Shown piece by piece: positions 39,735 to 64,000 of a stretch of DNA of 64,000 nucleotides. This stretch comes from Marsupella aquatica (Eukaryota; Plantae; Marchantiophyta). The notes under the pieces were generated by a model, which saw only the letters and a list, made by a program, of their open reading frames with translations, was not told the DNA's origin and made no database searches. Each line of letters begins with the position of its first letter. The stretch's first letter is position 1. The stretch lies in NCBI GenBank assembly GCA_973895155.1, contig OZ316891.1, positions 15,345,037 to 15,409,036 of the forward strand, given 5' to 3'. A program made the translations under genes and the position numbers.

Positions 39735-40083
39735 TGTTGGGTATTTACTCTTACGTCTAGATTAGGTATGACGTGGTTGGTACAACAACGTGGGTTGGTA
39801 CAACTACGTGATTAGGTACAACTAAGTTGCACACTATATCATAAGAGGCATGTGTCCTTGGAGAGGTAGAACCAAGGCTCATTGTTATGGAGCCACTTGA
39901 GAGATAGGGAGAGCTTACACTGTGGAGACTCGGTATAGCCGACGGGCTTAGAGTTCATTAAAGCTCTCTTGTGTGTTCCCGTAGACGTAGCCTCAAGGAG
40001 GTGAACCACGTATCTCTTGTGTCGACTATTGTGCGTTGGATGGTTCATGGGCTTGCCGTTGCGATCGTCGTCTATGCTCAACA
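39735..40083 (+). repeat. 3' LTR (349 bp)
   Basis: Matches the 5' LTR except for three fewer 18-bp units and about 5 substitutions. Confidence 0.97.
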
Positions 40084-40593
40084 TCATATTCATAAATTTT
40101 CCCATCCACATGATGAACCATGGAATTATGGTCTAGAGCTTCAACTCTAACTAGCCTAGGCCCCATCTCTAACTTATAGTCGATGCTTTATAAGTAAGAT
40201 TAGAGTAACTAGTAGTTAACTATCATAAATTATTTAATTTTACAATATTTACTATTCAGGAAAGGTTCCAACCTGAATTTTGACTAACTTGGTTACTAGT
40301 CTTGAGAATAAAGGAAATTGTCCTTTTGATGGAGGTTGAAAAGTGTCACCATTTACCATCAATTCCGTCTGAATTTTCTGAATTCCCACCCTATCTTCCT
40401 TTGGTACCCCTCCACCTATGGCCTCCAAGAGAGTCCCAAACAACATGGGGGACAGGAATTGATCCAGAACTTACAAGTCGCTTGCATTGTGTGCTTTGAA
40501 CTTCCCTGGCTGAAGTTTGTCACTCTAATCTCCAAAACCCTCACAGCAAGCATCAATTTGTCCTTCAAGTAATCGCACCACTCCCAATTCAAG

Positions 40594-41060
40594 TGTTGAG
40601 CATAGACGACATTCGTAACAGCAAGCCCATGAACCATCCAACGCACAATAGTCCACACAGAGAGATACGTGGTTCACCTCCACATGAGGCTACGTCCACG
40701 AGATCACACAAGTCAAAGCTTTACTGCACTCTAGGTCGAACGGCCATACCAAACATCCACAACACAAGCTCTCCCTATCTCTCAACTAGCTCCGTAACAA
40801 TGAGCCTAAGTTCCACCAGGGTCTGGCATTAGCCCTGGCTTAATACACTACAGCACTACCGCTAACATTAGTTAAGTCCTAACCTGAGTTAGACTAACTG
40901 TGGTTAGCTCATGAGTCACAAGACTATAGCAATATCTAACAAACTCCCCCTTGACTCTTGTCTTGGGGACTCGACTAAATGCTACCATATGGAATCCTCT
41001 GCGGGAAGTTCTAGACAATCACCAAACCAGGTCTCCCCCTAAAAACCACAACAACCCCAA
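40594..41060 (-). mobile_element. Truncated related Copia: 3' LTR (40594-40941), PPT (40942-40957) and 3' UTR, broken off near 41.06 kb
   Basis: The reverse complement of the neighbour's LTR end (GTCGTCTATGCTCAACA) starts at 40594. The PPT GAGTCAAGGGGGAGTT abuts TG. The 3' UTR (CTAGAACTTCCCGCAGAGG) is similar to 39640-39734. Confidence 0.88.
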
Positions 41061-41319
41061 TTTAAGGAAAACCAAACTTTGGAAATTCTGAAAATCACTA
41101 AATATTATTATTTTAATAAAAAGGGGGCAACATGACGCGTGGCTGCGCGTGAAACCCTGAAAATGACTGCAACGTCACATTTTTACCAATCCAACTTGAC
41201 GGGACCAAGAGACATGCTCACGCGAATAATAATAATAGAGAAATAAATCTTTGAGATCCTTTATATATGATAACCAGTATATAAGGAGTTTACAAATAGT
41301 TTCTAGAATGACATACAAA

Positions 41320-42842
41320 TTAATCTGATCTCATGCCGACTATTATTTTGGAAGCGTCCAAAATTGGGCGTCTGTTAAATTGCTCTACTAGATATCTATC
41401 TCCATGCCTCTGAATCACAGGGTCTTCCCATAGAGTATGATTATAATCATAATCTCTAAAAATAGATTTAACTGACCAATCTGAATAATCTCTTCCATTG
41501 GCAATGACAAGCGGCTCACAAGAGTTTGCTAGCTTGCTAAGATACGGAATCAACAAGTTAATCAGGAAACTGTCGTCGACCGACCCAAAATATTTGGGCG
41601 GAAATAATGATCCAACAACAGGATCTAAACAAGCATGAAATGCATCGGATTCGATAAGCATTATATTTTGCTGCAGATACGCCTTCGTATAAATTCCAAC
41701 CTTCTCAAAACACTTCAAAAATATCCGCTTATTTGATGTCACCCCATCGCATAAGTAACAATGAGACTGATCCCAAATATACTTAAATGAGGCCATTTCC
41801 ATCGCAGTAAAAATAGATGCTAAAATCTGATCTAAAAGGTTCTTCCCAAGAGAGGACCAGATCCCTACATCGAAATTCTCAAAACAGAATCTCAAGAATT
41901 CGTGAAGATGAGGCCTTGGAAAAACGTATATATTCCCAATCCGAATTCCAGTTGAGACCGCCATCAGTCGGGAATGCGGTGCAGTGTAACAGAGTAGATG
42001 CTCCACGTCTAAAACTATGAGCCCATTTTCTCTGCTGCAATGAATCTCCTGTAGAGAAACACAAGAAGATGCATGAGCCCGTATGGATGTAGTCACGCGA
42101 ATGGTCGCGTCACATATTACAGAGAAAAAATCCTCTACACTCTGGCCATTGATAAGTGACGTCTGTTGAAGTGCTTGATAAGAACTTGATCCGCATGTCT
42201 CTGCACGTACAGATGCTCCCATATATCCTTGTTCAGATCCCAATCTCGATGTAGATTTCTAATCGACCAGATGGGATAATCGAACTTGTTAGCGAACGCA
42301 AGACAAAGCCTTGAATTTGATAGCTTTCGTAAATATGGAATGAGGTCATCCCTCAAAAAGACATCATCCAACGATCCTTGAAACGACTTAGCGAACAATA
42401 ATCCGCATACAGCTGTCTGGCATGTATGGGAAGGACAGGCATCAATCTGGATTATATTCTCTGGTCGATAATCTTGAAACATATCACGTAGTCTCTCGAT
42501 AGATTTGAAGACAACAGTCTTATAATTTTTCTTCACATAACCAAGATTCCAGCAATGATCCCGCGTGAACACATATATCAGCTGCGATAGGTCGGTGCTC
42601 GACAACACTTCTGAAAGTATCTGATAAACCAGTTTATCGTCGAGAATAGACCAGACCATCACATCAAAATGATCATAACAGAATTTTATAAGATCATGAA
42701 GATGCGGCCTCGGAATGACACATAGAGATCCGATATGAATTCCGGGTGTCGACTTGAGCTGAGGAGTATATTTTGAAACAGAGCACAAGAAGTTTTCCAG
42801 TCCTAAACCTAGAAGTTGACGTGACCTGCTCCACTTAGACAC
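41320..42842 (-). CDS. Two tandem degenerate FCP1/SCP (NIF) HAD phosphatase-like domains (exons 42842-42141 and 42048-41320); possibly the tail of the upstream large gene
   Basis: Motifs PRPHLHDLIKFCYDHFDVMVWS, VVFKSIERL, PENIIQID and PRPHLHEFLRFCFENFDVGIWSS, YIWDQSHC, RIFLKCF, QNIMLIESD. A phase-0 GT-AG intron at 42140-42049 joins ...HLSMAR|EIHCSR in frame. The DxDxT motif is degenerate in both (LGLGLEN, VLDVEH). Confidence 0.8.
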
Positions 42843-42967
42843 CTGTAAATGAACAATTTGATTCTCATATTATGCAATTGCAAACAACCACGTGACCGGG
42901 CACGTCACTCCCAAAAGTTCAATTTCAATCAATTTATAAATAATAATTGATAATAAACAATAAACGT

Positions 42968-43873
42968 TTACTTATTGGACTTATCCCGAGCTTCTATAGC
43001 ACGGTCTTTCTTGGCAGATAAGTATTTCATAAATTCGTCAAACTTTTCTAAATGGTCTTTATTCCCCTGATTACGAATGATCACGTTTCTCCTCCAAAGA
43101 TTCGTCTTATCAATATAATCTTTCTCAAGATTTTCTTGAGAGAACGTTGGAATCCCATATCCACTAAGGAGCTCACGGAATGTCAACTTGTCAATTGACA
43201 TGTCGCATAGATATGGATATAGTTTCTTTCTAAAAAATAGGTCATCATCGAGCCCAGAATATGCATCGGGATAGAGCGATGAATAGAAGTCATTAAGGCT
43301 CGTCTTATATGCAGCGTCATCGATAAGAATGACATTCTCGATGTTGTAATCTTTAATATCGGCGGCAATGTCCGAGAGACATTTGACAAATAAAGGGATG
43401 TCATTATTATTCTTCCCAATAAGTCGAGTTGATTCTTGTCCCCATATAAATTTAATACGTTTCAAAACTTCGGGTCGAAGTATCAACCTTACACAAGATA
43501 GAATATTTTGTTTGAACATGCACGACCAGATCGCAATGTCGTATAGATCTGCCACCTTCTCAAGAAATTCCATTAAATGAGGCCTTGGATAGATAACCTT
43601 GTGCATCTGTCTCACACCCCTTGATCGAATGGGCATCCCAGGTCTGATCTTCTCTGACCAGATAAGTACCCGATTCAGATCAAAAATTACAAGTCTCTTC
43701 TGAACCGGTGACTTCTTTGCCGATGGATTAGGCGCCATCTGTACCTGTGATTTTTGTGCCGCAGGGTTTGGAGAACGTACTAGAACGGTCTGTTTGTTTC
43801 CCGCCTCCGGACGATCACCGGACTTCCGGACTGGTGCCTTCGATACTCGATCAGGGGGTTTCGGGATAGGCTT
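42968..43873 (-). CDS. FCP1/SCP-like HAD phosphatase domain exon (DLNxxL subtype)
   Basis: RLVIFDLNRVL, YPRPHLMEFL, YDIAIWS, FIWGQES, LFVKCL, ENVILIDDAAYK. Confidence 0.88.
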   Translation of the reverse strand, partial: KPIPKPPDRVSKAPVRKSGDRPEAGNKQTVLVRSPNPAAQKSQVQMAPNPSAKKSPVQKRLVIFDLNRVLIWSEKIRPGMPIRSRGVRQMHKVIYPRPHLMEFLEKVADLYDIAIWSCMFKQNILSCVRLILRPEVLKRIKFIWGQESTRLIGKNNNDIPLFVKCLSDIAADIKDYNIENVILIDDAAYKTSLNDFYSSLYPDAYSGLDDDLFFRKKLYPYLCDMSIDKLTFRELLSGYGIPTFSQENLEKDYIDKTNLWRRNVIIRNQGNKDHLEKFDEFMKYLSAKKDRAIEARDKSNK

Positions 43874-43959
43874 CTGTAAAACATTAAGAAATGAAAATAA
43901 GTTTATAACGCGAACGGTCGTGTGACTACAAAGAGAGACACTGAAATGAAGTGTATTAC

Positions 43960-44748
43960 CTGTACAAGATGGTCGTTCAGTGCTAGAATTCCACCGGAAA
44001 TGCCAATCATAGCAGCACGGATCCCGGTAACTAGGTTACTTGCGGACGTCGGCTTGCGGAAGTCCATGTCAAATAACGACAAGACTATCTCCCTACGGAA
44101 TTTCTCAATTTGATCCGTGGAAAAATTAATTCCGTTTCCTTGACACAAGCACTTGGCGTATCTCAAGATAAACACACCACAACTGTGGCCATCACTCTGG
44201 TGAGGAATATCATTCCGATATATCTGTTCCCAACCTGAGAGATCCAAGTTGACACCAGTTCTCCAGCCAATTTCGTCGGCGTAGTACTTCCCAACAATAT
44301 CTAGCACCCCAGGATTCTGTCGATTATGAACTAGAGAATCTAGGTACTCCAGCCGTTTCTTCTTCGGATACAAGACTACCAATGACCAATGTTCTTTCAC
44401 AGCATTGTGTACTGGAAAGACCAGTTTGTCGTATTCACTGATTTTTAGCAGAAACTCCTTTGTCCAAGCTGCCCTCTCCTCGTCAAAAATGGTAGGATCC
44501 ATGGAGAGAAGCTCAAAATGGTGTGTTTGGAAGAATTTGACAAGGTCTGACTTTCCAACTCTATCGAGAATCAGTTCGAGAAAACTCAAATAAGCGTTAA
44601 TTATATCATCGGTGAGCAACTCGCGCGGTCTCAAACACATCATATGTTTCCTCTTTATCGAGTGTTGTAAGAACTTGGTCAATAGCTCTTCCATATCCTT
44701 AGAAGGATCAAGGCATTGATCTATTCGACTAGCCAAATTTTCAAAAAA
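43960..44748 (-). CDS. Ulp1/SENP-family (peptidase C48) SUMO protease domain exon
   Basis: LRPRELLTDDIINAYL, KLVFPVH...EHWSLVV, LEYLDSL, IPHQSDGHSCGVF. The His-Asp-Cys triad and the oxyanion Gln are present. Confidence 0.92.
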
Positions 44749-45559
44749 CTGCAAAAAACAGAGATTTCAATACGCCTTCAAATAACGTACTGAGGTTGTA
44801 GCCTAAGGGTTGTAGCCTCAGAAAACAAAAACAATAACAGATCAATAATAAAATAATGACGTCTATAATAGAAACTTTAAGCTTATAGCTTGCGAATGAC
44901 CTTTGGATTGGGTGGATCCGGCCTTTTTGCAGCTGATCTCTTGGGTGCCTCAATCGCAACAACATCCTTCAGCCCTCCTCGAGACCGCAGTGATCGCTCC
45001 ACCGGACCAGTTTGCGAAGGTTGGAGCGATGAGGCGGGAAGACCTTCAAATGGTTGTGGCATTTGATTCAAATATTCCACAATCTGGGAATCCGATTCCA
45101 AAATATCCGGTGCCACAATTTCTACGTGAGTCACCTCTGCAATATATCGAGGTCGAGACCACGAACCCGGTCGCGTCAAGTCAGCTGTTAGTCTCTTAAC
45201 GACTTGAGCCGAGTCTGGTGCCAAAAACGTTCCCAGGTCTGGCACTCGATTCTCGGAAAAGCGCACATTATTGATGATTGTCTCCATTCTGGATGCAGTG
45301 GCAGTCTTCTCCTCGGTAATCAAAAGCTTCCAATATTGCAAAGCAAGGACTGCCTAGACTCGAAGCTACTCCGGTGAATATTTATTCCAATCATCCAATG
45401 AGACTGTACTTAAGGGTGGATCGTTAAATTCAAACTCCGGGCGAAGAAAATAGTCTAATATTTTCTTCTTAATTGCAACTGAGGGTGAAGAAGGCTTCTT
45501 CAAATTTAGCCTTATTTTCGGTAGACGTTGTGCCTCAGGAATAAGCGAAAGATCCTTGG

Positions 45560-46200
45560 CCCTCTCGGCCTCCTTCCTCGCTGCCTCCAGTCTTGCGGCT
45601 TCTTCTCTCTCCAGTCTTGCGGAATCGACCTTTTCTGCCTCCAACTTCTCCGCCTCCACCCTCTCTGGTCTTGCGGTCTCGTCCGCCATCCTCTCGGCCA
45701 GCAGCCTCTCAGCCGCCACACTCTCCGCCTTGGCCCTATTTTCCTCTGTCACTAAAAGGACTCTCGCAGCCTCCGCGTTCTCGGCCTTCGCTTTCTCCGC
45801 CTGGGCTTTCTCAGCCTCCGCTTTCTCAGCCTGGGCTTTCTCAGCCTCCGCTTTCTCCGCCTGGGCTTTCTCGGCATCCGCTTTCTTCGCCTGGGCTTTC
45901 TCGGCATCCGCTTTCTCCGCCTGGGCTTTCTCAGCCTGGGCATTCTCAGCCTCGGCTTTCTCCTTCTTCTTCGCGGCAGTTGCTTTTCTAGCTGTTGCCT
46001 TTTTCTTCTTAACCTCCTTCTTTTGAAGCTCCTCTTGTCGGGCCGCATCCTGCCGGGCCGCCTCCTCCAGCCTGGCCGCCTCCTACCGGGCCGCCTCCTC
46101 TCTGGCCTCCTCCTGCCGGGCCGCCTCCTCTCTAGCCTCCTCCTGCCGGGCCGCCTCCTCTCTGGCCTCCTCCTGCCGGGCCGCATCCTCTCGGTCCACC
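45560..46200 (-). repeat. Coding tandem repeats (EEAARQ/EEAR and AEKAQ/AEKAE units) forming a coiled coil
   Basis: 15-bp units such as TCAGCCTCCGCTTTC and TCCGCCTGGGCTTTC at about 45770-45960. 30-bp units CCTCCTCCTGCCGGGCCGCCTCCTCTCTGG at about 46050-46190. Confidence 0.9.
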
Positions 46201-48059
46201 TCATGTCGAGGCTCCTGTGTGGCCTCTTCATCAAAGTCCTCAGCGTCCTCGGAACCCTCCATCTCCTCGTCCTCTTCATCAGCGTTCTCAATGTCCTTCA
46301 TCTCCTCTCCGTCACTCTCTTCATCTCCTCTATTGTCGGAATTTCCGACGTTGTTCTGCGTATCGGTCATCCACTCTGGATCTTGGTCATTGACATCCCC
46401 ATCCGCGTCACCTTCCACGTCATCTTCCCCCTCACCATCCGCATCACCATTGCTCCCTGCATCCTCAACATTGAAGCCGCAGTCGACTTGATCTGAATAA
46501 AATCAGATCATTTGATAAGAATGACTCACGCGCATATTCGCGTGAAAAGAAATGTTATGAATGTCCACGCGCATGTTCGCGTGACGCAATAAAAAGTAAG
46601 AGGTTTCAAAAGTAACTTACCTTGGATTGGCCCACTAGGGTACTCCGTTGGTCGAATGTACAATCGATCGGAATCTTCAGAGAGTGCATACTCTTGCAAT
46701 AATTGATTACAAATATTATCAGGGATATGTTGTTCGTGGAGGACATCCAAAACATCAGCCCTGAGAGCAGTTACGGATGGACGGTACTTCATTAATTTAT
46801 CTATACATTTTTCTATACTAGCCCGTACTGGGTCAATCAATGACAGCATTGTATCAATTGTCGTCGTGGTGTGTTGCAAGAAACAAGACAACTCCCTATG
46901 CGTTGCCACAGGGTAGTAATATTTTACATTGGATCCAGCATCCCGTAAAAAAAGCTGAAATTAGTTCACAATATTAATTGAGAATATAATAATCTAAATA
47001 ATCTTAAAATCGAAACCCCAAAATATAAATCTCAAAACTTACCATTAAGCACTGGATCAAGTTCGTTCCCTCACCGAAGCATATAGCCCATTCCCCACAT
47101 TGGATGAATTGACTAACAATACTTTCAAAGAATGGAAGTATCTTTTCTGGGGAAGGTGTCGTGAACTCGCCGCTCTCTTCAAAATTGGCTATCTTCTCAA
47201 TCTGATATTTGGAGACCAATTGGAACTCGAGGGCTTGTGGATCGCCCATTGTGCTGAAGGCCAAGCTGTGAAAAGCGTAAGTTACAATAAGCTTCTTCTC
47301 CTTCGGCCGCTTCTGAATATAATGGCTATCGACAGCAACGTAGTGTGTGTACTTCCCTAATTCCCGTTTGATTAAGTAAGACTCAACGGGAGAGGCTACA
47401 ATAATAACCACATGGTGTGGTTTTGCCCCTATCTCGCTAGTAGCACGAAATAACCCCTCATAGAATGAGCAATTTGGCGGACGCAAATCTCCCATTGATG
47501 AGGGATCAAAATAAATCAAGCTCGCAAGGTTCTTGTCTTCACGTATGATACAGTCTGCAAACCCAGCATTTTGTATATCCTGCAGGGATCGCAATTTCAA
47601 CCTCTCACCGACCGGCTGCACTAGTTGGTTTCCTTGACTATCAACTGATTTCTGTATTCCTTCGACCAACCTGTAGAATATAGGGTCGATCTCCTTCAAC
47701 AAATTATCATTACTAATATTTACATTTAACACTAGTACATATTAAGCTGATTTTCGATGCTCAATTTTTGCGAACAATCGGCGTCCGATTCTTTTAGCAT
47801 CGGAAATTCCGATTATCAAAAAATGGCAATATGCCATACTCTCGGCTTTGAATATCTTCATTTCCGATATAATTGACAACGGAACCTTTCCGATGCGTTA
47901 AAAAACGGATCATATCTGTTAGAAAACACATCGGATCCCTCAACAAAAACTTTGATTGATATGTCCGATGTTTTTTGTAACGAAAATGATGTGCGTTACA
48001 ATATTGATCGGAAACTTTCCGTAGTTAATAATAACGGATATTATATCCGATTGTGCTAA

Positions 48060-48216
48060 CATGGCAAAGTCCGATGTTAGGAGAATGGGAAAGTCCGATG
48101 CTAGAAGAATGGGAAAGTCCGATGCTGGAAGAATGGGAAAGTCCGATGCTGGGAGTATGGGAAAGTCCGATGCTAGAAGAATGGGAAAGTCCGATGCTGG
48201 GAGTATGGGAAAGTCT
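48060..48216 (+). repeat. 21-bp tandem repeat (GAATGGGAAAGTCCGATGCTA-like), CACTA subterminal
   Basis: About 7-8 copies, with an inverted counterpart at 49063-49245. Confidence 0.95.
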
Positions 48217-49062
48217 GGTTATGACAAAAAGAAATTTTTTGATTGTGTTAGAATGAAAAGTTTTGATGTGTTAGATGGGGTATGTGGTTGCACCGATATA
48301 CTCTTCCCAAAAGATGCAATCATTCTTGCATGCATGAATAACTTCATACTTGAGGCAAATGGACTTGAGTGTTGTTTTTGCCTCATTCCAAGACCCAACA
48401 TATTGTTCCCTTACGGAAATATGTGCTCTACATGCCAAGTCCAAAATACATCATCTAGAAGGAGGTTGCTTGTCCCATGTAGTCTTTGTTGCAAGTCCAA
48501 CAACAACATAGTTGATAAAAGATGAGACAATCAGGAGCCATTGACGCTGAGGCTTTGGAAGGACCAAAATATCATCCATAACTAATAAGCCATAATTATC
48601 CCATATCAAATCTAATGAAGGAGGGCTTTACTATCGATGAATGACCCCTGCCAGATTTCTATTGGTTTCTCCTAGGGGAATGTAATAGGGTAACTAGAAT
48701 AGGTCACTTGATGCAAAGATCTAATCTCATGATAGAGAAAAATGGATCAAGAATGGGTCCAAATTATGGGTCTTAGTAAACTCACAAGTGTATAAAATCC
48801 CCAAACACTCTAAGTCAAACAACAAAAGTGCTAAGCTTGCATGTACAATGTAAGGAATAAGAACCACAAAGTTAAGCTCATGTTGGAGGAATAGCAATTG
48901 GGATGGGTGACCAATTAGTTGAGAAAATTTGAAGAGTTCACATGTCAAGGGAGATGGGCACCTAGCTCATAGTTCCAAATGAAAGTAGAAACCCAATTAA
49001 AGGAAGAGATGGGTGACCTGAGCATGTCGCGTCCGCTGAAATGCATATCCCATTTTGATTGC

Positions 49063-49245
49063 TTCGGACTTTCCCATTCTCCTAGCATCGGACTTTCCCA
49101 TTCTCCTAGCATCGGACTTTCCCATTCTCTCACCATCGAACTTTCCCATTCTCCTAGCATCGGACTTTCCCATTCTCCCACCATCGGACTTTCCCATTCT
49201 CCCACCATCGGACTTTCCCATTCTCCCACCATCGGACTTTCCGAT
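49063..49245 (-). repeat. 21-bp tandem repeat (CATCGGACTTTCCCATTCTCC-like), inverted partner of the 48060 array
   Basis: About 8-9 copies. Confidence 0.95.
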
Positions 49246-51423
49246 AGAAGTCCGATTGTCGATATCCGATACTATTAAAATGGCATGTTGCGATGCTAGT
49301 AGTATTGGATATATGGTTTTTCAAATTTTATTTTACAAAGGTGTCCGATGTGGAGAGAATCAAAAAAAGGAGGTAAAATGTACTAGTGTAAGCACTTCTT
49401 CAGATAACCACTCAACGCATCTCTCAACTGATTCAGGACCATCTTGTCGAGCTTAAAGCAATCAATCATTCCTTTGACCCGCAATTTCCGCGCTGAATCT
49501 GTCAGACTTTTCAGCTCCATCCAGGTGGATGTTTCCCCATTGAGTTTACTCAATAATAAAATCTCAAACTCAACTTTCGTCTTCTTCTTTATACAGAATT
49601 GCTCCAAACTCATGCTGGTCGTTGACAACACTGGAGCCTCAGAGGACTTCCTCGCCTTCCCAGATTTCACTTTGATGCTTCAGTTTTTGAGTATAGACAA
49701 TCTTCCGCTCAACATATATTCCGCTGCCTTTCGAAGAACCGAGTCTGAGCACCCTTGACAAGAACGGAACGTCTTCTTCAGAAGATGATAAGCACACGGA
49801 TTATCCACAATTTTGACGGCGTCCCTCTGTAAAATTCCGTTGTAAATTACAAGCTCTCCTGTCCTTGATAGTTCGTAGACCTCCATCCACTTCTTGAATG
49901 TTTCGTCCTCCATTGTAAAGAGAAACGGAGCCAATTCTCCAAATTTCATCATTTCGTTCTTCCCCATTTGAGCCCATGGGCAAACAAAACTCGTAGCTCT
50001 CATAAATACCTGAAAAACAATGGAAACATGACAATTCTAAGCTTGACGCGACCAGTCGCGTGATAAAAGTTTACACGAAAATGTGATCGAAGAGGGTTAT
50101 TTATATACCTTCCAATTTGGATGACGATAATGTGATCCAGGCCGCCCAAATGAGTTCCAGATATTACGATACTGTCGTACAATGGTGAGAAACTGTCCTT
50201 CTTCCATTGATGTTTGATGACAGTGGTTCAGAGCTTTCCATAATCCCATCAAATGAACATTATTGTCGTTGTTGAGCGTTGCCCAAAACATTACAGCTTC
50301 TACAGTACCGCAAGCGTCTCATACAACTTGGCTGACTTTGTCGTCCTCTCTCAGCAATTTGTACGCCATTATTGTGTGCTGGCCTCCGAGTATCCAGAAA
50401 TGACTGGTCATAATGTCCTCCTCCTTTGGCGATGAATCGTAGGGCGTCCCATTGTAGGCGGGATCTCTGTCGGCCTCCGACTGAACCCACTTCACAGGGA
50501 CTAAAAAGCAGCATCGCTTCTCGAACTTTATAGCCGAATGAGAGAGGAGTGAATTCTTTAGCCTATCTGTGTAATCATGATTCCACTCTCGGCACTTGAT
50601 GTGGTCCGGTGCAAGATGACAACGTGATGTCTCAACAAAAAATGACTTGCTGTTAAATATATTCACAACACTATATTCTTTGAGGAAAGAATCGAACAGA
50701 GCCCCGACATTCGCTGAGGTAATTACTTTCGGAAGATTCTCCGCCGAGTATACTTCAACCTTGCTAACTGGCGGGGCCTTTCCCAAGCGAAATCCCTGGT
50801 TGAAAGGAACTCTCTGGAACTCAAGTACGTCAATAATATATTGACAAATCAAATCTCCCGTTGATGCCTCTGGATCGGAAGGATATCCCACACTAGTAAC
50901 CTTTTCCAAGGCGTGCCTTGCACCTAGAAGATAATCGATTCTAGGCTGATTGAAGGTTACATATTGCGTTCGATCCAAACAAATACTTATTTTGTCTTCC
51001 TGCTGGTCGTCGCTGACTAGCAGAACCAATCCCTCTGTACACTCTTTAACTTTCATGTTCTTCTCAAAGAAACACCCGAGAATTTTTGATCTCTCCAAAA
51101 CTGTAGCTTTATCATTTCTTGCCACCACAAGACGGACAACCCCATTGCGAACGACTATTCCAAAATCGGATATCTCAGTCGATTCAAAGAGATGGATACT
51201 CTTTGTCTCCGTTGTTCTCTCTCTGATTGACTTTCCTCGATATGCAAGTATGGATGTCTCCGTGGGAGTCATTTTTGTCTTGGTTTTCTTTCAAGAAGCA
51301 GCTTTAGACGAGTCTCTTTTCCGCTTTGAGGTTCCGGTAGGATCCATTATGAAACAGACAAAATATTGAAAGTTAAACGTTTATTATAAAATACTAACAC
51401 GCGTTTGGTTGCGTCGTGCCGAA

Positions 51424-51954
51424 TTACATTTTAGGAACATTTATCCTGACCCAATCTTCTCGCTCATCTTCATCTAACCAAAACCAAAGGTTCCTAAACG
51501 TGTCAAGTTCAGATCCTTCAAATCCACCCAGAATATCCAGCGGCGGGAGAGTTCTGATGGATTCTGTAAATCTTAATGCTACACTCCGTGAAGTCAAATG
51601 CCTTCGAAGCGATTCATATCCTGGTCTATCAGTGAAGTCGTAAGCTACCAAGGTGACTGTCGCCCAAGTACCACTATAAGTAACTATGTGGCACCACTTC
51701 TTACTGACTGTTCGAATGGCGATCAAGTCCATGACCCGATTTTTAATCGCAGTATCCGACAAATTCCCAAGACAGTGGAAAAACTCTTTGACTAATGGCC
51801 AAATATATTTCTCGACAATATCGTCCGGAAGACCGGGTATCAGGTCTTCAGCTTGACTCCATATCATGTTTCGGTTCATAACCTTTGCACGTGCAATGCG
51901 CTCCATCATCATTTGACGATGAGATTTTCGATTCATGTCAAAGGACTGCAGCAT
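51424..51954 (-). CDS. F-box-like protein (paralog 1)
   Basis: LIPGLPDDIVEKYIWPLV ... IRTVSKKWCHIV, an F-box signature split by an insertion. Confidence 0.62.
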   Translation of the reverse strand: MLQSFDMNRKSHRQMMMERIARAKVMNRNMIWSQAEDLIPGLPDDIVEKYIWPLVKEFFHCLGNLSDTAIKNRVMDLIAIRTVSKKWCHIVTYSGTWATVTLVAYDFTDRPGYESLRRHLTSRSVALRFTESIRTLPPLDILGGFEGSELDTFRNLWFWLDEDEREDWVRINVPKM

Positions 51955-52153
51955 AATATGGAAAATATTAAGAACAAGAACCTATCCATTAAGAACTGGG
52001 ACCACCGAAATTCTGAGAAAATCTACCAAACCTTTCGATTAGGACATCTCGTTCTTCCTCATCTAAATTGTTATATTTGTTCGTAAACAATGCGATTTCG
52101 TCAGAAGTAGTAGTCCCAAGAACAGATATTTCTGGAAGGATAGAAATATCCTG

Positions 52154-52555
52154 TCAAATAACTCGACAGACTGAGTCAAACTCCAACTCCTCAGTTTCGG
52201 GTATGTCGTAAAGAGCATCATTTGCGACATCGACTATCCGGTTTGCTTGTTTGAGGATAGCCCATAACCTTGTATTTGTAACTAAAAAGTTCCACTTCTT
52301 GCTACAAGCTCCAAGCCGAATAAGGTCTCGGACCCTATCGATAACCAAATCGTTATCGAGGTGTCGATATCCACGCAATCTTTCAATTGAAATAAAGTGT
52401 TCGTAGAGTATTGGCCAAATGTTTGAAATGACCAAAACATCTGGTATTCCTCCAATGAGACTAGAGGAGGTTTCATCCAGCGTATCCCATATTGTTTTCT
52501 GTTTCTTTTCATGAGATGAAAGGAAATCTCGAGCCTCATTCAAAAGTTGGTTCAT
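52154..52555 (-). CDS. F-box-like protein (paralog 2)
   Basis: LIGGIPDVLVISNIWPIL ... LGACSKKWNFLVTNTRLW. Confidence 0.6.
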   Translation of the reverse strand: MNQLLNEARDFLSSHEKKQKTIWDTLDETSSSLIGGIPDVLVISNIWPILYEHFISIERLRGYRHLDNDLVIDRVRDLIRLGACSKKWNFLVTNTRLWAILKQANRIVDVANDALYDIPETEELEFDSVCRVI

Positions 52556-52620
52556 CTTGCTTTTATCATATCACAAAACATTGTTAGAAGACATACGACG
52601 CGCTTGGTCACGTAAGTTAA

Positions 52621-53208
52621 CTAGAATTCTTTAAAAGCGTAGATGTCACCCTCAAGGTATCCAATTTCGTGGCATCTGACTGTAAATTTCCATTTTTCAA
52701 GAGGGTGAAGAGCATCGTAAGTCTTCGTGAAGAGTTCCCTAAGATCTCTGGACATTGACCCCATGAATTTAATTCTTGGGTATTTCTGGAAGAAACTTTG
52801 AACTGTCGATGAGAGAGACTCATTTCCGATCGGTTTAGTAGGATTTCCTGGGAAAGCCAAATCTAATAAACTCAACTTGATTACACCCAGAAGATAGGTA
52901 TTCCCAACAAGGTGGCGCCATCTGCGACACACCGAAGATAGTCCTACAAACTCATCCAATTCCTTTATTGAGAAATTTCCTGCATTAATCGAGGAATTAA
53001 AAGTCTCCTGGATCCGAGGCCATATCAATTCCGTGACAATAAAATCTGGAAGTCCTGGTAGTAGTGTTTCAACAAATACAGAATATCCCGCAAGTAGACC
53101 ATCTTGGCTTCTGTCCAAAATGTCAAATATTGGGCATAGATATCTGAAGCTCTCCAGACCAGGTTCGCCCATGACTCTTTTCAGCCAAATGATATATCCC
53201 AGATTCAC
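52621..53208 (-). CDS. F-box-like protein (paralog 3)
   Basis: LLPGLPDFIVTELIWPRI ... LSSVCRRWRHLV. Confidence 0.62.
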   Translation of the reverse strand: MNLGYIIWLKRVMGEPGLESFRYLCPIFDILDRSQDGLLAGYSVFVETLLPGLPDFIVTELIWPRIQETFNSSINAGNFSIKELDEFVGLSSVCRRWRHLVGNTYLLGVIKLSLLDLAFPGNPTKPIGNESLSSTVQSFFQKYPRIKFMGSMSRDLRELFTKTYDALHPLEKWKFTVRCHEIGYLEGDIYAFKEF

Positions 53209-53269
53209 GCGACTGGTCGCGTCTACAAATCAGAATGCATAAACAATTCTTTGATAGATTGATCATAAA

Positions 53270-54125
53270 TGTCTTCGTCCTCTAACAGAACCAGTCAATG
53301 AGAGAGCAACCTCAGACGCGACTGGTCGCGTCAACTGAACCTAAACAACTATATCCACTGAACCTTATGTGGAGATTTGGATATGGTACGCGCTCAGTAA
53401 ATCTATCCAGTTTCCTTCTCACACGCGACTGGTCGCGTCAACTGGTCCTAAAAGGAACCTTACCTCCTCTAACAGAACCAGTCAATGAGAGATCTACGTC
53501 AGACGCGACTAGTCACGTCAACTGGTCCTAAAAGGAACCTTACCTCCTCTAACAGAACCAATCAATGAGAGAGCTACCTTAGACGCGACTGGTCGCGTCA
53601 ACTGAACCTAAACAACTATATCCATTGAACCTTTCTTGTGGAGATTTGGATATGGTACGCGCTCAGTAAATCTATCCAGTTTCCTTCTCACACGCGACTG
53701 GTCGCGTCAACTCGTCCTAAAAGGAACCTTATCTCCTCTAACGGAACCAGTCAATGAGAGAGCTACCTCAGACACAACTGGTCGCGTCAGCTGAACCTAA
53801 AGAACTATATCCACTGAACCTTATGTGGAGATTTGGATATGGTACGCGCTCAGTAAATCTATCCAGTTTCCTTCTCACACGCGACTGGTCCTAAAAGGAA
53901 CCTTACCTCCTCTAACAGAACCAATCAATGAGAGAGCTACCTGACGCGACTGGTCGCGTCAACTAAACCTAAACAACTATATCCACTGAACCTTCCTTGT
54001 GGAGATTTGGATATGGTACGCGCTCAGTAAATCTATCCAGTTTCCTTCTCACACACGACTGGTCGCGTCAACTGGTCCTAAAAGAAACCTCATAGTATTT
54101 TCACGCGACTGGTCGCGTCAACAGC
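53270..54125. repeat. Compound tandem repeat (about 80-250 bp sub-units) rich in the ACGCGACTGGTCGCGT palindrome
   Basis: The block GTGGAGATTTGGATATGGTACGCGCTCAGTAAATCTATCCAGTTTCC occurs 4 times and CCTCTAAC(A)GAACCA(G/A)TCAATGAGAGA about 5 times. Confidence 0.95.
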
Positions 54126-55216
54126 TCAAACAACTTTTGGACAATAGGAGAATACAGTGATACAACTATGATTGCTGACCCGTACGGACAAGGAAATCCG
54201 AGTAAGCATGATTTCATTCATTTGTATTCATTCATTTGTATTCATTCATGAACTTTACAATAATTCAGATGTTTGAGCTCTGTCATTGTGAAACTATTAT
54301 ATATCAGAAGTTTAGAGAATGATCCAGCTAAGATGATTCAATTTAGCAGTCTACTGGTTGTATTCATCAATTAAAGGATTCAGTGTAATGAGATTCACAT
54401 AACATGAGAGTTTATATGATTAAATTCACAGCGGGCAAGTTTGTAATGACTTACTTAAGATAATTCAGGTTGTATTTTAATTAGTGAGTTTGTATGATTC
54501 ACACATATTTGAGTTTACAAACAAACCGCGTTATGAAAACTGTGCTTAACAATCAACAAAAATTTTAGCAAACCACAATCAACACCAGCAGAAAATGTAG
54601 AAATTACACCTGAATTCTGAAAAATTGATGTAATCGTCTGAGAGATTGACATCCAAGCACTTGAAGACCTTGCTGCGGCATTCCAGAAAGTAAATATAAG
54701 ATTGAAGATATTAATATGCTAAGCAACAACAACACAGCTTCTATACTTCTATACATAGAGCTTCGCTGCCACCAATTGAATAACATGTGCTTAATGCTAA
54801 GGAGCTCATTATGTCGAGTTAAAAAGACTCTTTTAGAAGTACAATCAAAGCTGTGGATAGGCAAACTGAGCATGAATAAAAGCGCACTAAACCTGAAGAT
54901 TCAAAGAGGTGAAACAAACCTGAATGTTGAATGGAAGGAGCTAAAACAAGCTGCCAAAAAGTAGTTTGAGCTGCTGAAACATGTTGATCAAGCTGATATG
55001 AGCTTAAAATTGGCTGACACGAGCTGATACAAGCACTCCCAAAAAGCTAGCTACAACGAACTAGCAAACTAGAAGTGAATACGAGCTGTAAATGCAAGCT
55101 GCAATGCGCCAACGAGCTCCTAGTCGAAACGATGGACAACTACTAAGAGCTGCAACGCGCCGACAAGCACCTGACCACAATGAACGAGTTGCAACGACAA
55201 AAATGAAATCCAGGGC

Positions 55217-55290
55217 AGGAGCGAGAGCGAGAGCGAGAGCGAGAGCGAGAGCAAGAGCAAGAGCGAGAGTGAGAGCGAGAGCGACGAGAG
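55217..55290 (+). repeat. (GCGAGA)n microsatellite
   Basis: About 10 imperfect hexamer units. Confidence 0.9.
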
Positions 55291-56714
55291 CAGGCGTGCA
55301 AAAGTCTAGGGAGCGAGAAACAACAACAATGAACAATGAACTCGAGACCGTGGGCGCCGACACTAAGGAAGGACTAATTAGGGTATTGTTTTAGCATAAC
55401 CCTAATAACAGCCTAGCGACATTAAGGTTCCAGATGATCTCCGTACACTCCACCATCGACTGAACAAACTATGCAATCGTGAAAAAAAGATTACCGGATT
55501 TTTTGATTTTCCGTACTAAAGAAGATTTCTATTTGATCGCCAATTTGAAATTTAAACCGGTAATTATGCAACTGCGAAAGATTGTTAGTGGGGACCCCCG
55601 GATCCGGATCCGTATCTTCACTATATCTGCCAATTCAAATCCAAAATGTGAACGGACGACAACTTTCTCATGATCGTTCCATCACGTAGTGGAGGCAAAC
55701 TTTGAAATCATTCCATTTTGGTAGTGGAGACCGTCGGATCCGGATCCGTACTCCACTCTCTATCTTGCCAATTCAAAACCTTACTCTAAACGACGTAAAA
55801 CGATTCTCATGGTCGGGGAGAACCGATATTCAAAATCAATCCTGTACAATGATTCTCACGACTGGAGACTCAACCAATTTTCAAAATCAAAATCGAGTCC
55901 AAATGAACACATCCTCCATGGAGTCAATAGACTGATCTCATTGCTCACGGATCATTCTTCATTTTCAGTTTCTCCTGACCAGGATACCAGCTAGGCTCTC
56001 AACGGAGGCTGATCCAAGGCACATTTGAGGTGGAGCAGATTGGATCATTCGACTATTCCAGTCAGAGGCGGAGCTCATTCAAGCAACGCTGGCGCAGTTC
56101 TTGTTGTATCACCTTCAATCTTGGGGAGAGCACATCCGATCAAGCGGGAGAGTTGCGACGAAGCGAGACGACAAAGATTTAGAACCTCCATAGTCTGCCT
56201 CATTCATCGAAGCATTCTAGCGGACCAACAAAGAGCGGCTATTCTGAAATCACTGTCTGGTCGAGGATTTTGATCTTGATACGATCAACAAGTTGTCATT
56301 CTCTGGTGGTGGGATTCGGTCACGATACTCAAGGAAATTGGAGTTCGAAGGAGGAGGCTTAGTTGGCTGGGATGAGGAGGAGGCTACGCTGGAAGGAAGA
56401 GGCTTGGCTGGGAGGAGGGTTTCCGCCAACATCGGAGGGTTGCCGCCAACATTGCTGAGACCACACACAACTGAATAACTTGTAAGTATCAATCAGCATT
56501 AATTCCGCAATAAATGAGGAGAGTAGTTGCCTTAAATCATGCATTCAATGCATGAATTGAGTCAATGAACTTATGGTCCAATTTCTCACTCCGATTTTGA
56601 TCAATCCGTGTTTCAAGTCCAATACAGAAGCAATGTATAAGAAGTACTAGTAGAGGATCCGAATGAATTCTCTAGTCTAAAATTGTATGGCGTACGCGTA
56701 TAGTTGTCCGTACG

Positions 56715-58170
56715 TTTTGCTATTGTTTATTGTAGTCGACGGCCTAGCAAAACGAAACGTAATCGAGGTCCATTTTTCAGATCTTCCTGATCTCAACTTG
56801 TTAGTAGGATGACCTATTTTTTGGTTACACATGTAGTTCGTCACGCGCACAGTCACGTGAACCAATTTATCTCGTGTCTTTTGATATTGTTTATTGTAGT
56901 CGATAGCCTATCAAATTGGCCAGCAATCTATTTTAAAACCAACGTCTTTGTTTCATCACGCGCACGGTCGCGTTAATGTTTTAGAGGTCAGCGAAAGCTC
57001 TGCACTCTTAGACGTAATCGCCCCTTTATTTCTCAGATCTTCCTGATCTCAACTTGTTAGTAGGATGACCTATTTTTTGGTTACACATGTTATTCGTCAT
57101 GCGCACAGTCGCATGAACCAATTTATCTCGTGTCTTTTGATATTGTTTATTGTAGTCGATAGCCTAACGAATTGGCCAGCAATCTATTTTAAAACCAACG
57201 TCTTCGTTTCATCACGCGCACGGTCGTGTTAATGTTTTAGAGGTCAGCGAAATCTCTGCACTCTTAGACATAATCGCCCTTTATTTCTCAGATCTTCCTG
57301 ATCTCAACTTGTTAGTAGGATGACCTGTTTTTTGGTTATACATGTAGTTCATCACGCGCACAGTCGCATGAACCAATTTATCTCGTGTCTTTTGATATTG
57401 TTTATTGTAGTCGATAGCCTAGAAAATTGGCCAGAAATCTATTTTGAAACCGAGTTCTGATTCACGCGGCCGGTCGCGTTAATGTTTTAGAGGTCAGCGA
57501 AAGCTCTGCACTCTTAGACGTAATCGCCCTTTATTTCTCAGATCTTTCTGATCTCAACTTGTTAGTAGGATGACCTGTTTTTTGGGTTACACATGTAGTT
57601 CATCATGCGCACAGTCGCGTGAACCAATTTATCTTGATATTGTTTATTGTAGTCGACTGCCCAGCGAATTGGCCAGAAATATATTTTAAAACCGAGGTCT
57701 TCGTTTCATCACGCGCCCGGTCGCGTTAATGTTTTAGAGGTCAGCGAAAGCTCTGCACTCTTAGACGTAATCGCCCTTTATTTCTCAGATCTTTCTGATC
57801 TCAACTTGTTAGTAGGATGACCTGTTTTTTGGGTTACACATGTAGTTCATCACGCGCACAGTCGCGTGAACCAATTTATCTTGATATTGTTTATTGTAGT
57901 CGACTGCCCAGCGAATTGGCCAGAAATATATTTTAAAACCGAGGTCTTCGTTTCATCACGCGCCCGGTCGCGTTAATGTTTTAGAGGTCAGCGAAAGCTC
58001 TGCACTCTTAGACGTAATCACCCTTTATTTCTCAGATCTGCCTGATCTCAACTTGTTAGTAGGATGACCTGTTTTTGGTTACACATGTAGTTCATCACGC
58101 GCATAGTCGCGTGAACCAATTTATCGCAGGTCTTTTTGATATTGTTTATTGTAGTCGACAGCCTAGCAAA
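56715..58170. repeat. Tandem array of about 6 units of 240-256 bp, each with two ACGCG-N6-CGCGT variants
   Basis: GATATTGTTTATTGTAGTCGA recurs at about 56883, 57139, 57394, 57636, 57883 and 58138. Confidence 0.96.
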
Positions 58171-58375
58171 TTGTCAGTCAGAGGAATCTCGATTTTTCCT
58201 TGATTGCAAAAATGGTTACATCGATCCCGAAGGACTTCGGATGTGGAATCCATATCCACTAGCACTATCCAGGAATTTAAGCTACATAGTATCTATAACA
58301 AGTTCTAACTTGAACTACTCTTGAATCTGTAGTTCTAATCTTCAACTACTCAAAATATTGTTGACTTCGATCGAG

Positions 58376-58918
58376 TCAGTCATTCCAAGATGAAGGCATC
58401 CACTCATCGGTGTCTGGTGTGGATTCCCTTGAATCCATAAATTCTTCCTTTGCCCAAGTCCTAACGTCCATAGATTTTCTCGGCTTTCTCTTTCTATAAT
58501 ACAAATCAGAATCTTTGTTCATCTCTAATTGCCTTTTCTTTGGTGCGTCCACTTTCTTGGCCTCCTTCTTGACTGTCTTAGCGTCTGCTGCTGCTTCCCC
58601 CGAAATGGATTTGACGCATGCTCTGGCCTTCAACTTCTCCCCCCTCAAAACAGATTCCACGAGGGCTTTGCCCTTTAACTTCTCCCCTGATGCCATCTTT
58701 GTAGTCATCTCTGTCGGATTGGTCTCCATCTGATCTTCCATCGACAAATGTGGTGAACAATGTTGTCTCTCACAAAACATTTGACCCGATTTAGTCACCA
58801 TAAATATTATATTACATCGTTGACACATTCTGTAAGGAGTACCATGAATTCGATACGTCGAACCTTCTTAATCGTCCGTCGGAACATCCTCATTCTTTGA
58901 GCTCAGCGGAGTAGTCAT
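58376..58918 (-). pseudogene. Small Cys- and Lys-rich protein of unknown function, one in-frame TAA at 58868-70
   Basis: MTTPLSSKNED...*...RMCQRC...FCERQHC, a basic stretch RKRKPRK and an acidic C-terminus DTDEWMPSSWND. It is oriented divergently from the transposase. Confidence 0.45.
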
Positions 58919-59279
58919 CGCCCTTCAAACAAGAGATGCTGACCGAGACTAAGAATTGGAAATGAGAGAGCTGATGTGCAAATAGATTATCCAGTAGCCA
59001 GAAAGTGGAATGCGTGGGGGAATGAGCAATAGGGATCATCTCAATGCTTTATACTGTTTAGTCTCCACTAGTCATTGTACATAGTGGTTTCTAGAAGAGG
59101 GTGCACGTTTGACTGGCGCGTATTAGAATTGGCGGGAAGTTCAGTTGTCCTCTAATTATGGCTTTAATTTCATGTTTGGCGACCGCCCCGGGAATACTGA
59201 TTGCTAGTGAAGTACTGAGATTTCTTATGAAGGTCAGTAGTTACGGACTGTCCGGTGTCCACTCATTGGTAAACTGGTA

Positions 59280-60000
59280 CTGTCCACTCATTTTTCCTGA
59301 GTGGAGTTGAAATGATTGTCGTAATCGATTGTAGTCGTTCTCATTCACTTGAAATGACTGACGGACCATGCATTATCTTTACCGGTATGTGTGATGCCTT
59401 TAGATCCATAATTGTATCTTCTTGTCTCGTGCGCAATCGTATCTTACTTATGAAGTACCAATTACGAGCTAGAGTTTGGGCCTAGCCTTCTAGCTTCTAC
59501 GTCGTAGACCCTGTACCCTCTGACTAAGGTCACGCAACATGCCTTTAGATCCATAATTGTATCTTCCTGTCTCACGCGAAATCGTATCTTACTTATGAAG
59601 TACCAAGTACAAGCTAGAGTTTTGGCCTAGCCTTCTAGCTTCTACGTCGTAGACCCTGTTATCCCTACACCCTCTGACTAAGGTCACGCGACTAGTCGCG
59701 TGCAGGGCAGTGCATTGACTACATTCTGCCTACTTATTGACGGTTGTGACAGGACAATGCAGTTCACGGATGTTTTACTGGCGCTTATTAGCACTATTGT
59801 CCTCAGTAGTTACTGACTGTCCACTCATTTGTTCTGAGTGGATGTAAAATGATTGATCGTAATCGATTGTGGTCATTCTCATTCATTTGACATGACTGAC
59901 GGACCATGCATAGTCTGTTTCCGGTATGTGTGGTACCTCTAGGGTCACGCGACCAGTCGCGTGCAGCGCAGTGCATTGACTACATTCTGCTTATTGACCG
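59280..60000. repeat. Duplicated blocks upstream of the transposase
   Basis: TGCCTTTAGATCCATAATTGTATC at about 59395 and 59540. TGTCCACTCATTT...CTGAGTGGA at about 59281 and 59818. GGTCACGCGAC(T/C)AGTCGCGTGCAG at about 59682 and 59943. Confidence 0.88.
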
Positions 60001-60089
60001 ACGTGACAGGACAGTGCGGTGAAATTGACGGACGTGACAGGACTGTACGCTTACAGTGATATTCTCTGATGTGCAGGATCATAATTATT

Positions 60090-63000: not shown

Positions 63001-63466
63001 GGATTATGTGGGACCAGCAAAAGATAAACCTCCTGAGAGTTTTAACCCTAGGGTTGATGTTGTGAAGGGCTGTTATGTGTTGGTACGGCCGGACGACTCA
63101 CACCTGGATGTTTATCCCGTCCATATGGGGTTAGTTGTTACAGATGTGGTAGAAGGACCAGTGAATGAACAAAACCTTCTTACTCATGTATGTGGCGTTG
63201 AGTGGTTTAGACCATTTATGGCAAAGAAGCAACGTGGTCAATCAGACTGGCAGCCAAGAGAGCGGTGGGCAGATTCTTGGGATAAGAAATGGGAACGTGA
63301 TCCATCTCCAATATACAAGGAAGCTGAGACAATAGATGTTTCCTCTGCCTTGTGGTGTTTCAAAGCACGCAAAGGACCAGTGACAGGGCTGGTAGGAATT
63401 CCAAAGAATGTTGCTGTCAAGGCAAGAGACTATCTCTTGACATGCATAGCAAGTGACAAATCCTAG
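60090..63466 (+). pseudogene. Sola1-like / DUF7869-type RNase H-fold (DDD) transposase, spliced, with two in-frame stops
   Basis: Exons 60090-61977, 62056-62076 and 62178-63466, all phase 1 GT-AG. Motifs CCSEHCC, FSKCTTC, LCLIHDKMD, LKLQLDNCASDNKNRY and GFMVVGHTHEDVDGMFG. Stops TAG at 62474-76 (HFL*EVPDFK) and TGA at 62819-21 are in frame. The superfamily assignment is from memory of the motifs. Confidence 0.8.
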
Positions 63467-63539
63467 ACAGTAATGAAGCATGTAGTTTAGCATATAGTTT
63501 AAAAGGCAACTCAGAATAGTAGTAGCCAGAGAACTCAAG

Positions 63540-64000
63540 TTTAGACAAGTCTTATCGTCTAAGTTAGTTAGTTGGTTAGTTTATTTAAGATATAATATTA
63601 GTTAGTGGGGCCTTAGTTTGGTGATATATATTAAGGCATGATATTATTGACATTCAAATGAATGTCCAGTAGACATTGTAATATACAACAATCCTATTAA
63701 TAAATAATAATTATAGTTACACCCTCAAGTGAACTCAACTTTCAATGATTTATGATTTTATATGGTTCCATGCCTGATTGAGTCAAAGCAATAGAAACTA
63801 ACTAATTAAAGGGTGATACTATAATTGTAGGTCACGCACCCTGGTGCGTGTCAATCTTTTTTGTATTCAACCTATAGTAATTAAATAGACAAGTTAGTTA
63901 GTTGGTTAGTTTATTTAAGATATAATATTAGTTAGTGGGCCCTTAGTTTGGTGATATTAAGGCATGATATTATTGACATTCAAATGAATGTCCAGTAGAC
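63540..64000. repeat. AT-rich direct repeat downstream of the transposase
   Basis: AAGTTAGTTAGTTGGTTAGTTTATTTAAGATATAATATTAG...GAATGTCCAGTAGAC occurs at about 63561-63675 and again at about 63891-64000. Confidence 0.85.

Follow-up and report, generated by a model that had tools for sequence, protein, structure and literature searches.

The question raised by this locus is what a ParB/sulfiredoxin (ParB/Srx)-like domain does in a mobile element of a land plant. The locus lies in a stretch of 64,000 nucleotides of the liverwort Marsupella aquatica (contig OZ316891.1, positions 15,345,037 to 15,409,036), which is referred to in full as the window. The domain is encoded on the minus strand, in a gene (the ParB gene) carried by a giant DNA transposon. 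A sequence-only reading had described it as a nucleotide-binding or DNA-clamp module that precedes a helical region and a methyltransferase (MTase)-like domain, an order taken as a hint of prokaryotic or viral origin. In this work, the domain is part of one spliced gene that encodes a PH-like domain, the ParB domain, a helical region, a beta-class amino-MTase-like fold and an acidic tail. What is new here is a private palindrome, made of two 7-bp arms around 2 central bp (7+2+7), that occurs 21-31 times in the element, with other private palindromes in its relatives. We propose, with a rough probability of 0.45, that the ParB protein is the self-recognition factor of the element and protects it from silencing, similar to the VANC proteins of Arabidopsis VANDAL elements.

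The palindrome of the window is ACGCGAC-NN-GTCGCGT and it is specific to the element. It is found between 42095 and 59962 at 21 sites with two mismatches or fewer, and at 31 sites with three or fewer. The number of 21 sites was reached by none of 100 shuffles (mean 0.00). The sites are located solely in the 41-64 kb region; at up to three mismatches none is found in 1-41000, in the CACTA element nested in the gene or in the transposase. Most of the palindromes (29/31) lie outside coding intervals, and they are densest in the tandem arrays at 53207-54118 and 56772-58173. The first intron of the ParB gene holds palindromes both in the window and in the related loci L001-L006.

For the related loci, the most repeated 7+2+7 palindrome was sought without any sequence as input and compared with 5-10 Markov shuffles for each locus, and other spacers were also run. 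The palindrome TGGGTCG-NN-CGACCCA occurs 13 times in L001. The palindrome ACGAACG-NN-CGTTCGT occurs 10 times in L003, 11 times in L002 and two, three and three times in L004, L005 and L006, respectively. The palindrome TCTAGCA-NN-TGCTAGA occurs seven times in L011. There are four distinct 7+2+7 sites, and the site of one clade was not found in any other clade. The two central bases of the L002 and L003 sites vary (0.35-0.41) and the three flanking bases that lie outside the search pattern are conserved (0.90-0.95). A variable center with conserved flanks is as expected of a site that is read by a dimer. The sequence-only reading had suggested the palindrome as a target of the ParB module; this suggestion gains from the finding that each element family has its own repeated palindrome that changes with the ParB clade, and the protein probably binds the palindromes of its element. 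A longer palindrome of the AAGCTA type, AAGCTAGC-N4-GCTAGCTT, was also seen upstream of the gene in L009 (118-141) and L010 (35-58 and 162-183), and an AAGCTA-type palindrome is present in L014 at 580 and 1203. It may be the site of the AT-rich clade.

The ParB protein belongs to a family. A five-row profile, run against 1.84 billion proteins, identified 68 homologs with E<=1e-3, and the ParB segment is not a chance similarity. The relatives are found in liverwort, moss, lycophyte and fern; the 20 homologs that were looked up include those of Ceratodon purpureus, Adiantum nelumboides, Calypogeia fissa and Diphasiastrum complanatum. One entry in the hit list (P0057) is a repetitive protein that lacks the family motif and was discarded as a false hit. 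The metagenome scan yielded 17 loci among 165 pattern matches, and 16 of these are intron-bearing members of the family. The seventeenth (L012) sits on a very long branch and is a DUF6551 gene of prokaryotic type that carries DGQHR. This gene (1038-1931) stands beside a helix-turn-helix (HTH) gene and is the sole non-plant locus that was retrieved by the family pattern. A word-seeded search among longer proteins with the 317-amino-acid open reading frame (ORF) confirmed 0 of 1902 candidates, and scans of IMG/VR confirmed 0 of 26 and 0 of 12 stretches. The spliceosomal introns are at shared positions across the family, which argues for long residence in plants. A prokaryotic or viral origin of the domain is still plausible, as had been suggested; the IMG/VR scans, the ParB-like profile scan and L012 pointed to no close donor among prokaryotes or viruses.

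The members of the family have in common the motif GQH[T/S], an Arg and an Asn. The Arg of Box I, before the first helix, is kept in 32 of 35 rows. Gly-Gln-His is conserved in 39-40 of 41 rows, and 42 of 43 rows retain the later Asn of Box III. The equivalence of the boxes to those of ParB is by position and not by residue-level superposition. The replacement of the Arg of the Box II motif GxxR by Thr, which had been noted in the window, was borne out and is family-wide: Arg is present in only one of 41 rows, with Thr in 22, Ser in 15 and other residues in three. Among these rows are near-duplicates, as well as two fragments that align poorly. In a survey of ParB folds, the change of this Arg to Ala removed nucleoside triphosphate (NTP) binding in the binders tested (10.1101/2025.10.10.680097), and a phage ParB with mutated NTP residues can still activate a DNA dioxygenase (PMC13229309). 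The reading of the domain as a nucleotide-binding clamp is doubtful because the Arg is lost family-wide and is needed for NTP binding in the binders tested.

The ratio of nonsynonymous to synonymous substitution rates (dN/dS) in the AT-rich clade is 0.10-0.24 for the ParB domain (6/6 pairs), 0.17-0.41 for the PH-like domain, 0.29-0.37 for the helical region and 0.34-0.60 for the MTase-like domain; dS is saturated between L003 and L005/L006. The ParB domain is therefore under purifying selection in the relatives. Selection despite the lost Arg indicates that the domain has a use that differs from the classical switch or goes beyond it.

The fold of the ParB domain (50208..50657, minus strand) was modelled on an intact homolog (P0002) that is 57-59% identical to the window over this domain. 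The AlphaFold2 model was built from a 57-row alignment, has a mean predicted local distance difference test (pLDDT) score of 85.7 and contains two domains. Its residues 226-375 match ParB/Srx structures in both VIA and Foldseek, as the sequence-only reading had predicted. The top eight of 48,161 chains in VIA are all ParB/Srx: PadC (Z 8.7, root-mean-square deviation (rmsd) 2.9, 99 residues aligned), KorB (Z 8.6, rmsd 2.6, 93 aligned), SerK (Z 7.4), Srx (Z 6.5), Atu1540, pNOB8 ParB, SbnI and human Srx. The top 14 rows in Foldseek are all of ParB, Noc, Srx or SerK type; the best is Caulobacter crescentus ParB (7bm8, E 7.2e-3, probability 1.0) and no row reaches E 0.001. The sequence profiles are less telling. 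PF02195 matched none of the proteins in three sets (0/1, 0/4 and 0/38), phrog_1033 (ParB-like) gave weak matches in two of 17 proteins (best E 0.028), and sequence searches of the PDB returned nothing significant. In the window, the Box I Arg is at 50589-50591, GGQHT stands in place of GxxR at 50373-50387 and the conserved Asn is at 50226-50228. The peptides from which the domain had been recognised all lie in a single minus-strand frame (50109-50640), and the gap between two of them, MAYKLL and GTVEAVMF, covers an in-frame TGA at 50319-50321.

The second domain in the model of P0002 (residues 30-175), which was absent from the earlier description, corresponds to 50820..51245 (minus strand) at the N-terminus. 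VIA rows 9-50 are nearly all PH, PTB or FERM domains, with Z 4.2-5.2 and rmsd of about 3-5 A over 76-110 residues. The N-terminal domain is predicted to be PH-like by its fold only, at middling Z.

The C-terminal part of the protein was modelled on the helical region and C-terminal domain of L016 with a 16-row alignment (pLDDT 58). Beta-class or Mod-type MTases fill 11 of the first 12 VIA rows, among them CcrM (Z 7.6, rmsd 4.3, 172 aligned), EcoP15I Mod, M1.HpyAVI and M.RsrI, with Z below 8. Foldseek lists M1.HpyAVI (E 1.6e-3), followed by METTL3/14, and neither fold list has any row of a 2-oxoglutarate (2OG)-oxygenase. The helical region has no clear fold match in this model, where the structure hit list is filled by the MTase domain. 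The piece of the window at 47043..47729 (minus strand) was compared with several profiles. It scores 11.6 bits on a seven-sequence profile, where the best of 500 shuffles reaches 4.6, and hhalign gives E 0.0011. It is not above chance on a four-sequence moss-type profile (0.7 bits; shuffles 3.9), and its hhalign match to five loci is weak (E 0.008, probability 5%). The link of this piece to the family therefore rests partly on collinearity. Global alignment with long proteins misplaced the piece, ESM Atlas returned no usable match for it, and the MTase-like domain that was seen by eye in the fern protein P0064 was not detected in the profile tests.

The MTase-like domain is degenerate. DPPY and FxGxG are the usual motifs IV and I. 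Motif IV of the [DNS]PP[YFW] form is absent in 12 of 12 rows, with the first Asp kept in 11, and reads DPSS in the window. One Gly of the S-adenosylmethionine (SAM) motif I is kept in 10 of 10 rows, and FxGxG is only approximated in the window (FGEG). PF01555 matched none of the 16 members. The active N4C enzymes of Marchantia carry TSPPY, unlike this family (10.1101/2021.02.12.428880). The protein is of the ParB/Srx fold but it is neither a canonical ParB CTPase nor, by motif, a functional PF01555 member.

The window copy of the ParB gene is non-functional, with in-frame stops and an inserted CACTA element. Exon 1 (50109..51347, minus strand, ATG at 51347) has in-frame TGA codons at 51291-51293 and at 50319-50321. 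Other copies read CGA at the first stop (G at 51293, plus strand) in three of four public runs, the fourth having no cover there, and the homolog P0002 has Arg at the position of the second. The end of exon 1 (W-K/E-V) is common to most homologs. Intron 1 (50010..50108, minus strand, GT-AG) has one perfect palindrome inside, at 50046-50061. The first part of exon 2 (49389..50009, minus strand) encodes the helical region and has an in-frame TGA at 49680-49682. A profile built from six related loci gives this piece 28.9 bits, where the best of 500 shuffles scores 5.1, and the piece is also matched by tblastn with the liverwort protein P0031 (CAM6103508.1). The second part of exon 2 encodes the MTase-like fold. 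It is followed by exons 3 (46621-46954) and 4 (44883-46492), which together span 44883..46954 (minus strand) and encode a long acidic, charged repeat tail, with further GT-AG introns at 46955-47042 and 46493-46620. The tail has stops at 46085, 45368 and 45356, and low-complexity tails like it are found in P0037, P0038, L001 and L003. The stretch 45369-46492 is made of 15-bp repeats that code for the pentapeptides EAARQ and KAEAE/KAQAE.

Exon 2 is split by a nested non-autonomous CACTA element of 1.66 kb (47730..49388), which has terminal inverted repeats (TIRs) CACTAGTACA, a target site duplication (TSD) TAA and 24-bp subterminal repeats. These repeats sit in inverted arrays, and the contig depth of the insert is above that of its host element. 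The joint without the insert (47726-49389) is present in all four runs (X1, X2, X3 and X4). P0031 is the best match of the window among the named homologs and the sole named homolog that bridges the CACTA site. It matches the window to either side of the insert (E 6e-37 and 5e-16), which shows that the ParB domain, the helical region and the MTase-like domain are one protein. The order of ParB, helical region and MTase-like domain that had been reported from the sequence therefore holds once the insert is set aside.

The 41-64 kb region is read as one multi-copy transposon of at least 22 kb (41052..64000). This reading follows from the summed contig depth in the four runs, which is not equal to copy number and is roughly flat over 41.6-60.85 kb, including the start of the transposase, in 4/4 runs; depth peaks are confined to internal repeats and the nested CACTA element. 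The left end of the element is at about 41030-41070 and its right end is presumably outside the window. A putative DDD/E transposase (DUF7869; PF25273, E 9.4e-31) is encoded at 60060..63466 (plus strand) and is interrupted by stops. Its acidic motifs are HDKMD (61620), QLDNC (62225) and GHTHEDVD (62336), and it may be Sola-like. Sola DNA transposons have a DDD transposase, TIRs and a 4-bp TSD (PMC10741241).

The window contains a dynein heavy-chain gene and a Copia element, followed by the cargo cluster of the giant element from about 41.05 kb. The dynein gene has long exons on the minus strand in the 1-33000 region; dynein heavy chain is a marker of plants with flagellate sperm, and its presence makes a seed-free plant the likely host. 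The Copia element (34577-40083), with long terminal repeats that are about 95-98% identical, is within or beside the dynein-bearing region. A related Copia fragment that is inverted and truncated (40590-41040) adjoins the left end of the giant element and ends near 41040.

The ParB gene has several companions in the cargo, all on the minus strand. Three ORFs at 41323..44035 are similar to NIF/FCP1 phosphatases (PF03031, E 1e-11, 2e-10 and 6e-15). Their usual DxDxT motif is degenerate, two of the three being readable, and the motif is absent in all five readable NIF copies. In L009 and L010 similar genes also come after the ParB gene, and the gene models of moss and fern have them merged with it. 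The ParB/NIF cassette is old, since the pairing is found across lineages. The NIF-like proteins are possible pseudo-phosphatases that would act on the C-terminal domain of RNA polymerase II. Tandem genes of this kind with a degenerate DxDxT were observed beside the ParB gene in distant lineages (window 41323-44035; L009 4519-6805; L010 4813-8586). An ORF similar to Ulp1/C48 SUMO proteases (43906..44766; PF02902, E 3.4e-19) has its His, Asp and Cys residues present. Three ORFs at 51427..53229 have weak F-box-like matches in Pfam (E 0.001-0.015), below the curated cut-offs. An ORF of 163 amino acids at 58379-58867 (minus strand) has a Cys/His-rich start (CQRC...C...HC) and no Pfam match.

The CpG content of the element bears on the function of the protein. 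The observed/expected CpG ratio is 0.79-0.98 in the site-bearing cargo at 41300-56700 (0.79-0.93 with the sites masked), and it is 0.30 in the site-free transposase (60060-63466). Copia has a ratio of 0.49, and the host region at 1-33 kb one of 0.61. Among the related loci, the exons of the site-bearing L001 and L003 have ratios of 0.70-0.78 and those of the site-free L010 and L016 have 0.32-0.47, a comparison that is confounded by host and base composition. In the proposed self-recognition, each subunit of a ParB protein dimer would read one of the 7-bp half sites, with no contact to the central 2 bp. With the Arg replaced by Thr or Ser, the ParB module would be a scaffold for dimerisation and spreading, or would use another ligand, and would not be a classical clamp that hydrolyses cytidine triphosphate (CTP). 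The MTase-like domain would be a pseudo-enzyme that binds DNA or partners. As a result, the element would be shielded locally from host CG methylation and would be expressed, its chromatin staying open in the manner of VANC. Anti-silencing as the purpose of the binding is put at somewhat below even odds.

Several findings weigh against this proposal. Half of the 16 loci (L007-L010, L013 and L015-L017), all from the AT-rich clade and several of them short, have no 7+2+7 palindrome above shuffles even though the gene is under selection. L004, L006 and L014 exceed their shuffles by one site only, and about four families account for all 16 loci. The CpG contrast may reflect a different age or origin of the cargo and the transposase. 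The window copy has many C-to-T and G-to-A changes relative to other copies, which indicates that it was not fully protected. The MTase-like piece of the window is weakly linked to the family and both folds were modelled on homologs. No DNA-binding domain or HTH was identified in the helical region, in a model of moderate quality.

The same binding of palindromes could serve another end, in which the protein condenses or bridges the 22-kb element, pairs its ends for transposition or carries excised copies. ParB proteins are described as spreading along the DNA around parS and condensing it, the sites are scattered across the whole element, and ParB-like or DUF3723 genes recur on giant elements. 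We consider such a role unlikely, as CpG retention follows the sites within the element and the Ulp1, pseudo-NIF and F-box-like companions would point to control of chromatin or transcription. No ParA-like ATPase was found among the scanned ORFs of the element, whose right end is outside the window.

The palindromes could also be sites of the transposase or of another element or host factor, with a separate role for the ParB-MTase protein. The binding by the ParB protein is deduced from sequence, half of the related loci have no sites near the gene, and a 2026 preprint reportedly describes sequence-specific activation by a transposase (10.64898/2026.08.24.746577). The distribution of the palindromes makes this improbable: they are in introns and spacers around the ParB gene and not solely at the ends, none is inside the transposase at up to three mismatches, and their sequence differs from one ParB clade to the next.

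The strong form of the sequence-only reading, in which the protein works as an NTP-gated sliding clamp and its fused N6A/N4C methyltransferase is active and marks the element, would be in agreement with the two predicted folds, with the conserved Box I Arg, Gly-Gln-His and Asn, and with the first Asp of motif IV in 11/12 rows, but this is a poor candidate. The GxxR Arg that binders need is found in 1/41 rows (its change to Ala abolished binding in those tested), PP(Y/F/W) is absent in 12/12 rows, motif I is reduced, PF01555 matches none of 16 members, and the MTase-like part is under the weakest selection. An endogenous giant-virus or recent prokaryotic insert, already disfavoured, is very improbable. 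In its favour, giant viruses have genes for ParB, Ulp1, NIF and F-box proteins as well, a protein of Cafeteria roenbergensis virus ranks first in BFVD (E 5.9e-4, rmsd 25) and CpG is not depleted. Against it, the spliceosomal introns are shared across the family, the element has a DDD/E transposase, the ORFs scanned include no viral hallmark gene, IMG/VR gave no relative, and the only prokaryote-type match is the DUF6551 gene on its very long branch.

In its widest form, self-recognition by the ParB protein would mean that seed-free land plants harbour an ancient giant transposon family with a phage-derived system similar to ParB/parS. A PH-ParB-pseudoMTase protein, altered so that the CTP Arg is gone, would load on private 16-bp palindromes and, with pseudo-phosphatase and SUMO-protease partners, would shield the element from CG methylation, and the protein and its site would co-evolve within each family. 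We regard this full scenario as speculative. If it is true, plants would have a second sequence-specific system against silencing, unrelated to VANC, and it could serve as a tool to change chromatin at chosen targets. The family offers four pairs of protein and palindrome, with uninterrupted genes from mosses and relatives, lineages that have tractable models, and the comparative evidence that protein and site are paired is unusually good. A ParB-fold gene for land-plant transposons was not found in the literature covered, which was limited.

Among known systems, the red-algal Plavaka elements that carry PAG3 (and PAG2) are similar in being giant DNA transposons with an accessory gene that has an N-terminal ParB-like domain, adjacent inverted-repeat arrays and an amino-MTase domain on the element (10.1101/2025.02.11.637652). 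The ParB-like N-terminus and the adjacent inverted-repeat arrays are both found here. Self-binding has been proposed for PAG3 (10.1101/2025.02.11.637652), and the idea of ParB with inverted repeats in algal transposons remains a proposal in print. The systems, compared by description only, also differ: PAG3 is fused to a C-terminal 2OG-oxygenase and the MTase is a separate gene with SET, whereas the window protein has a fused degenerate MTase-like fold, a leading PH-like domain, a DUF7869-type transposase and land-plant hosts.

The phage fusions of ParB and N6_N4 methyltransferase have the same order of ParB followed by a beta-class MTase (10.1101/2025.10.10.680097; PMC4738411). The [DGNS]GQH box of the family resembles the DGQHR of DUF6551/DndB. 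The DUF6551 locus L012 keeps GxxR, and DUF6551 fusions bound adenosine triphosphate (ATP) or CTP (10.1101/2025.10.10.680097), whereas the family has Thr or Ser, no catalytic motif, introns and extra domains. The ParB/parS, Noc and KorB systems of bacteria are similar in the predicted N-terminal fold and in 16-bp palindromes in many copies on the same replicon; they differ in that the family lacks the GxxR Arg, neither ParA nor an HTH was found, and the CG-rich sites are private to each element family. DUF3723 of fungal Starships is also an accessory gene of giant mobile elements (10.1101/2021.12.13.472469), and its clusters are the nearest named ones in ESM Atlas (score 0.94, 183-188 shared features), a lead only because the query recognition of 2234 is below the 2300 mark. 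It differs in its mobilising enzyme, and HMMER gave no PF12520 match.

VANC of Arabidopsis VANDAL elements is similar in having an element-specific motif that is amplified in introns, upstream regions and tandem repeats, with proposed co-evolution of protein and motif (PMC5735166). It differs in that its motifs are short non-palindromic 8-9-mers, and no VANC-type Pfam family matched the family proteins. Demethylation has been demonstrated for VANC (PMC5735166), the measure used here being the indirect CpG ratio, and VANC is described as the sole protein known to bind and modify its own transposon (10.1101/2025.02.11.637652). Taken by analogy, the ParB element resembles PAG3 most closely in description, the phage fusions in domain order and VANC in the layout of its sites.

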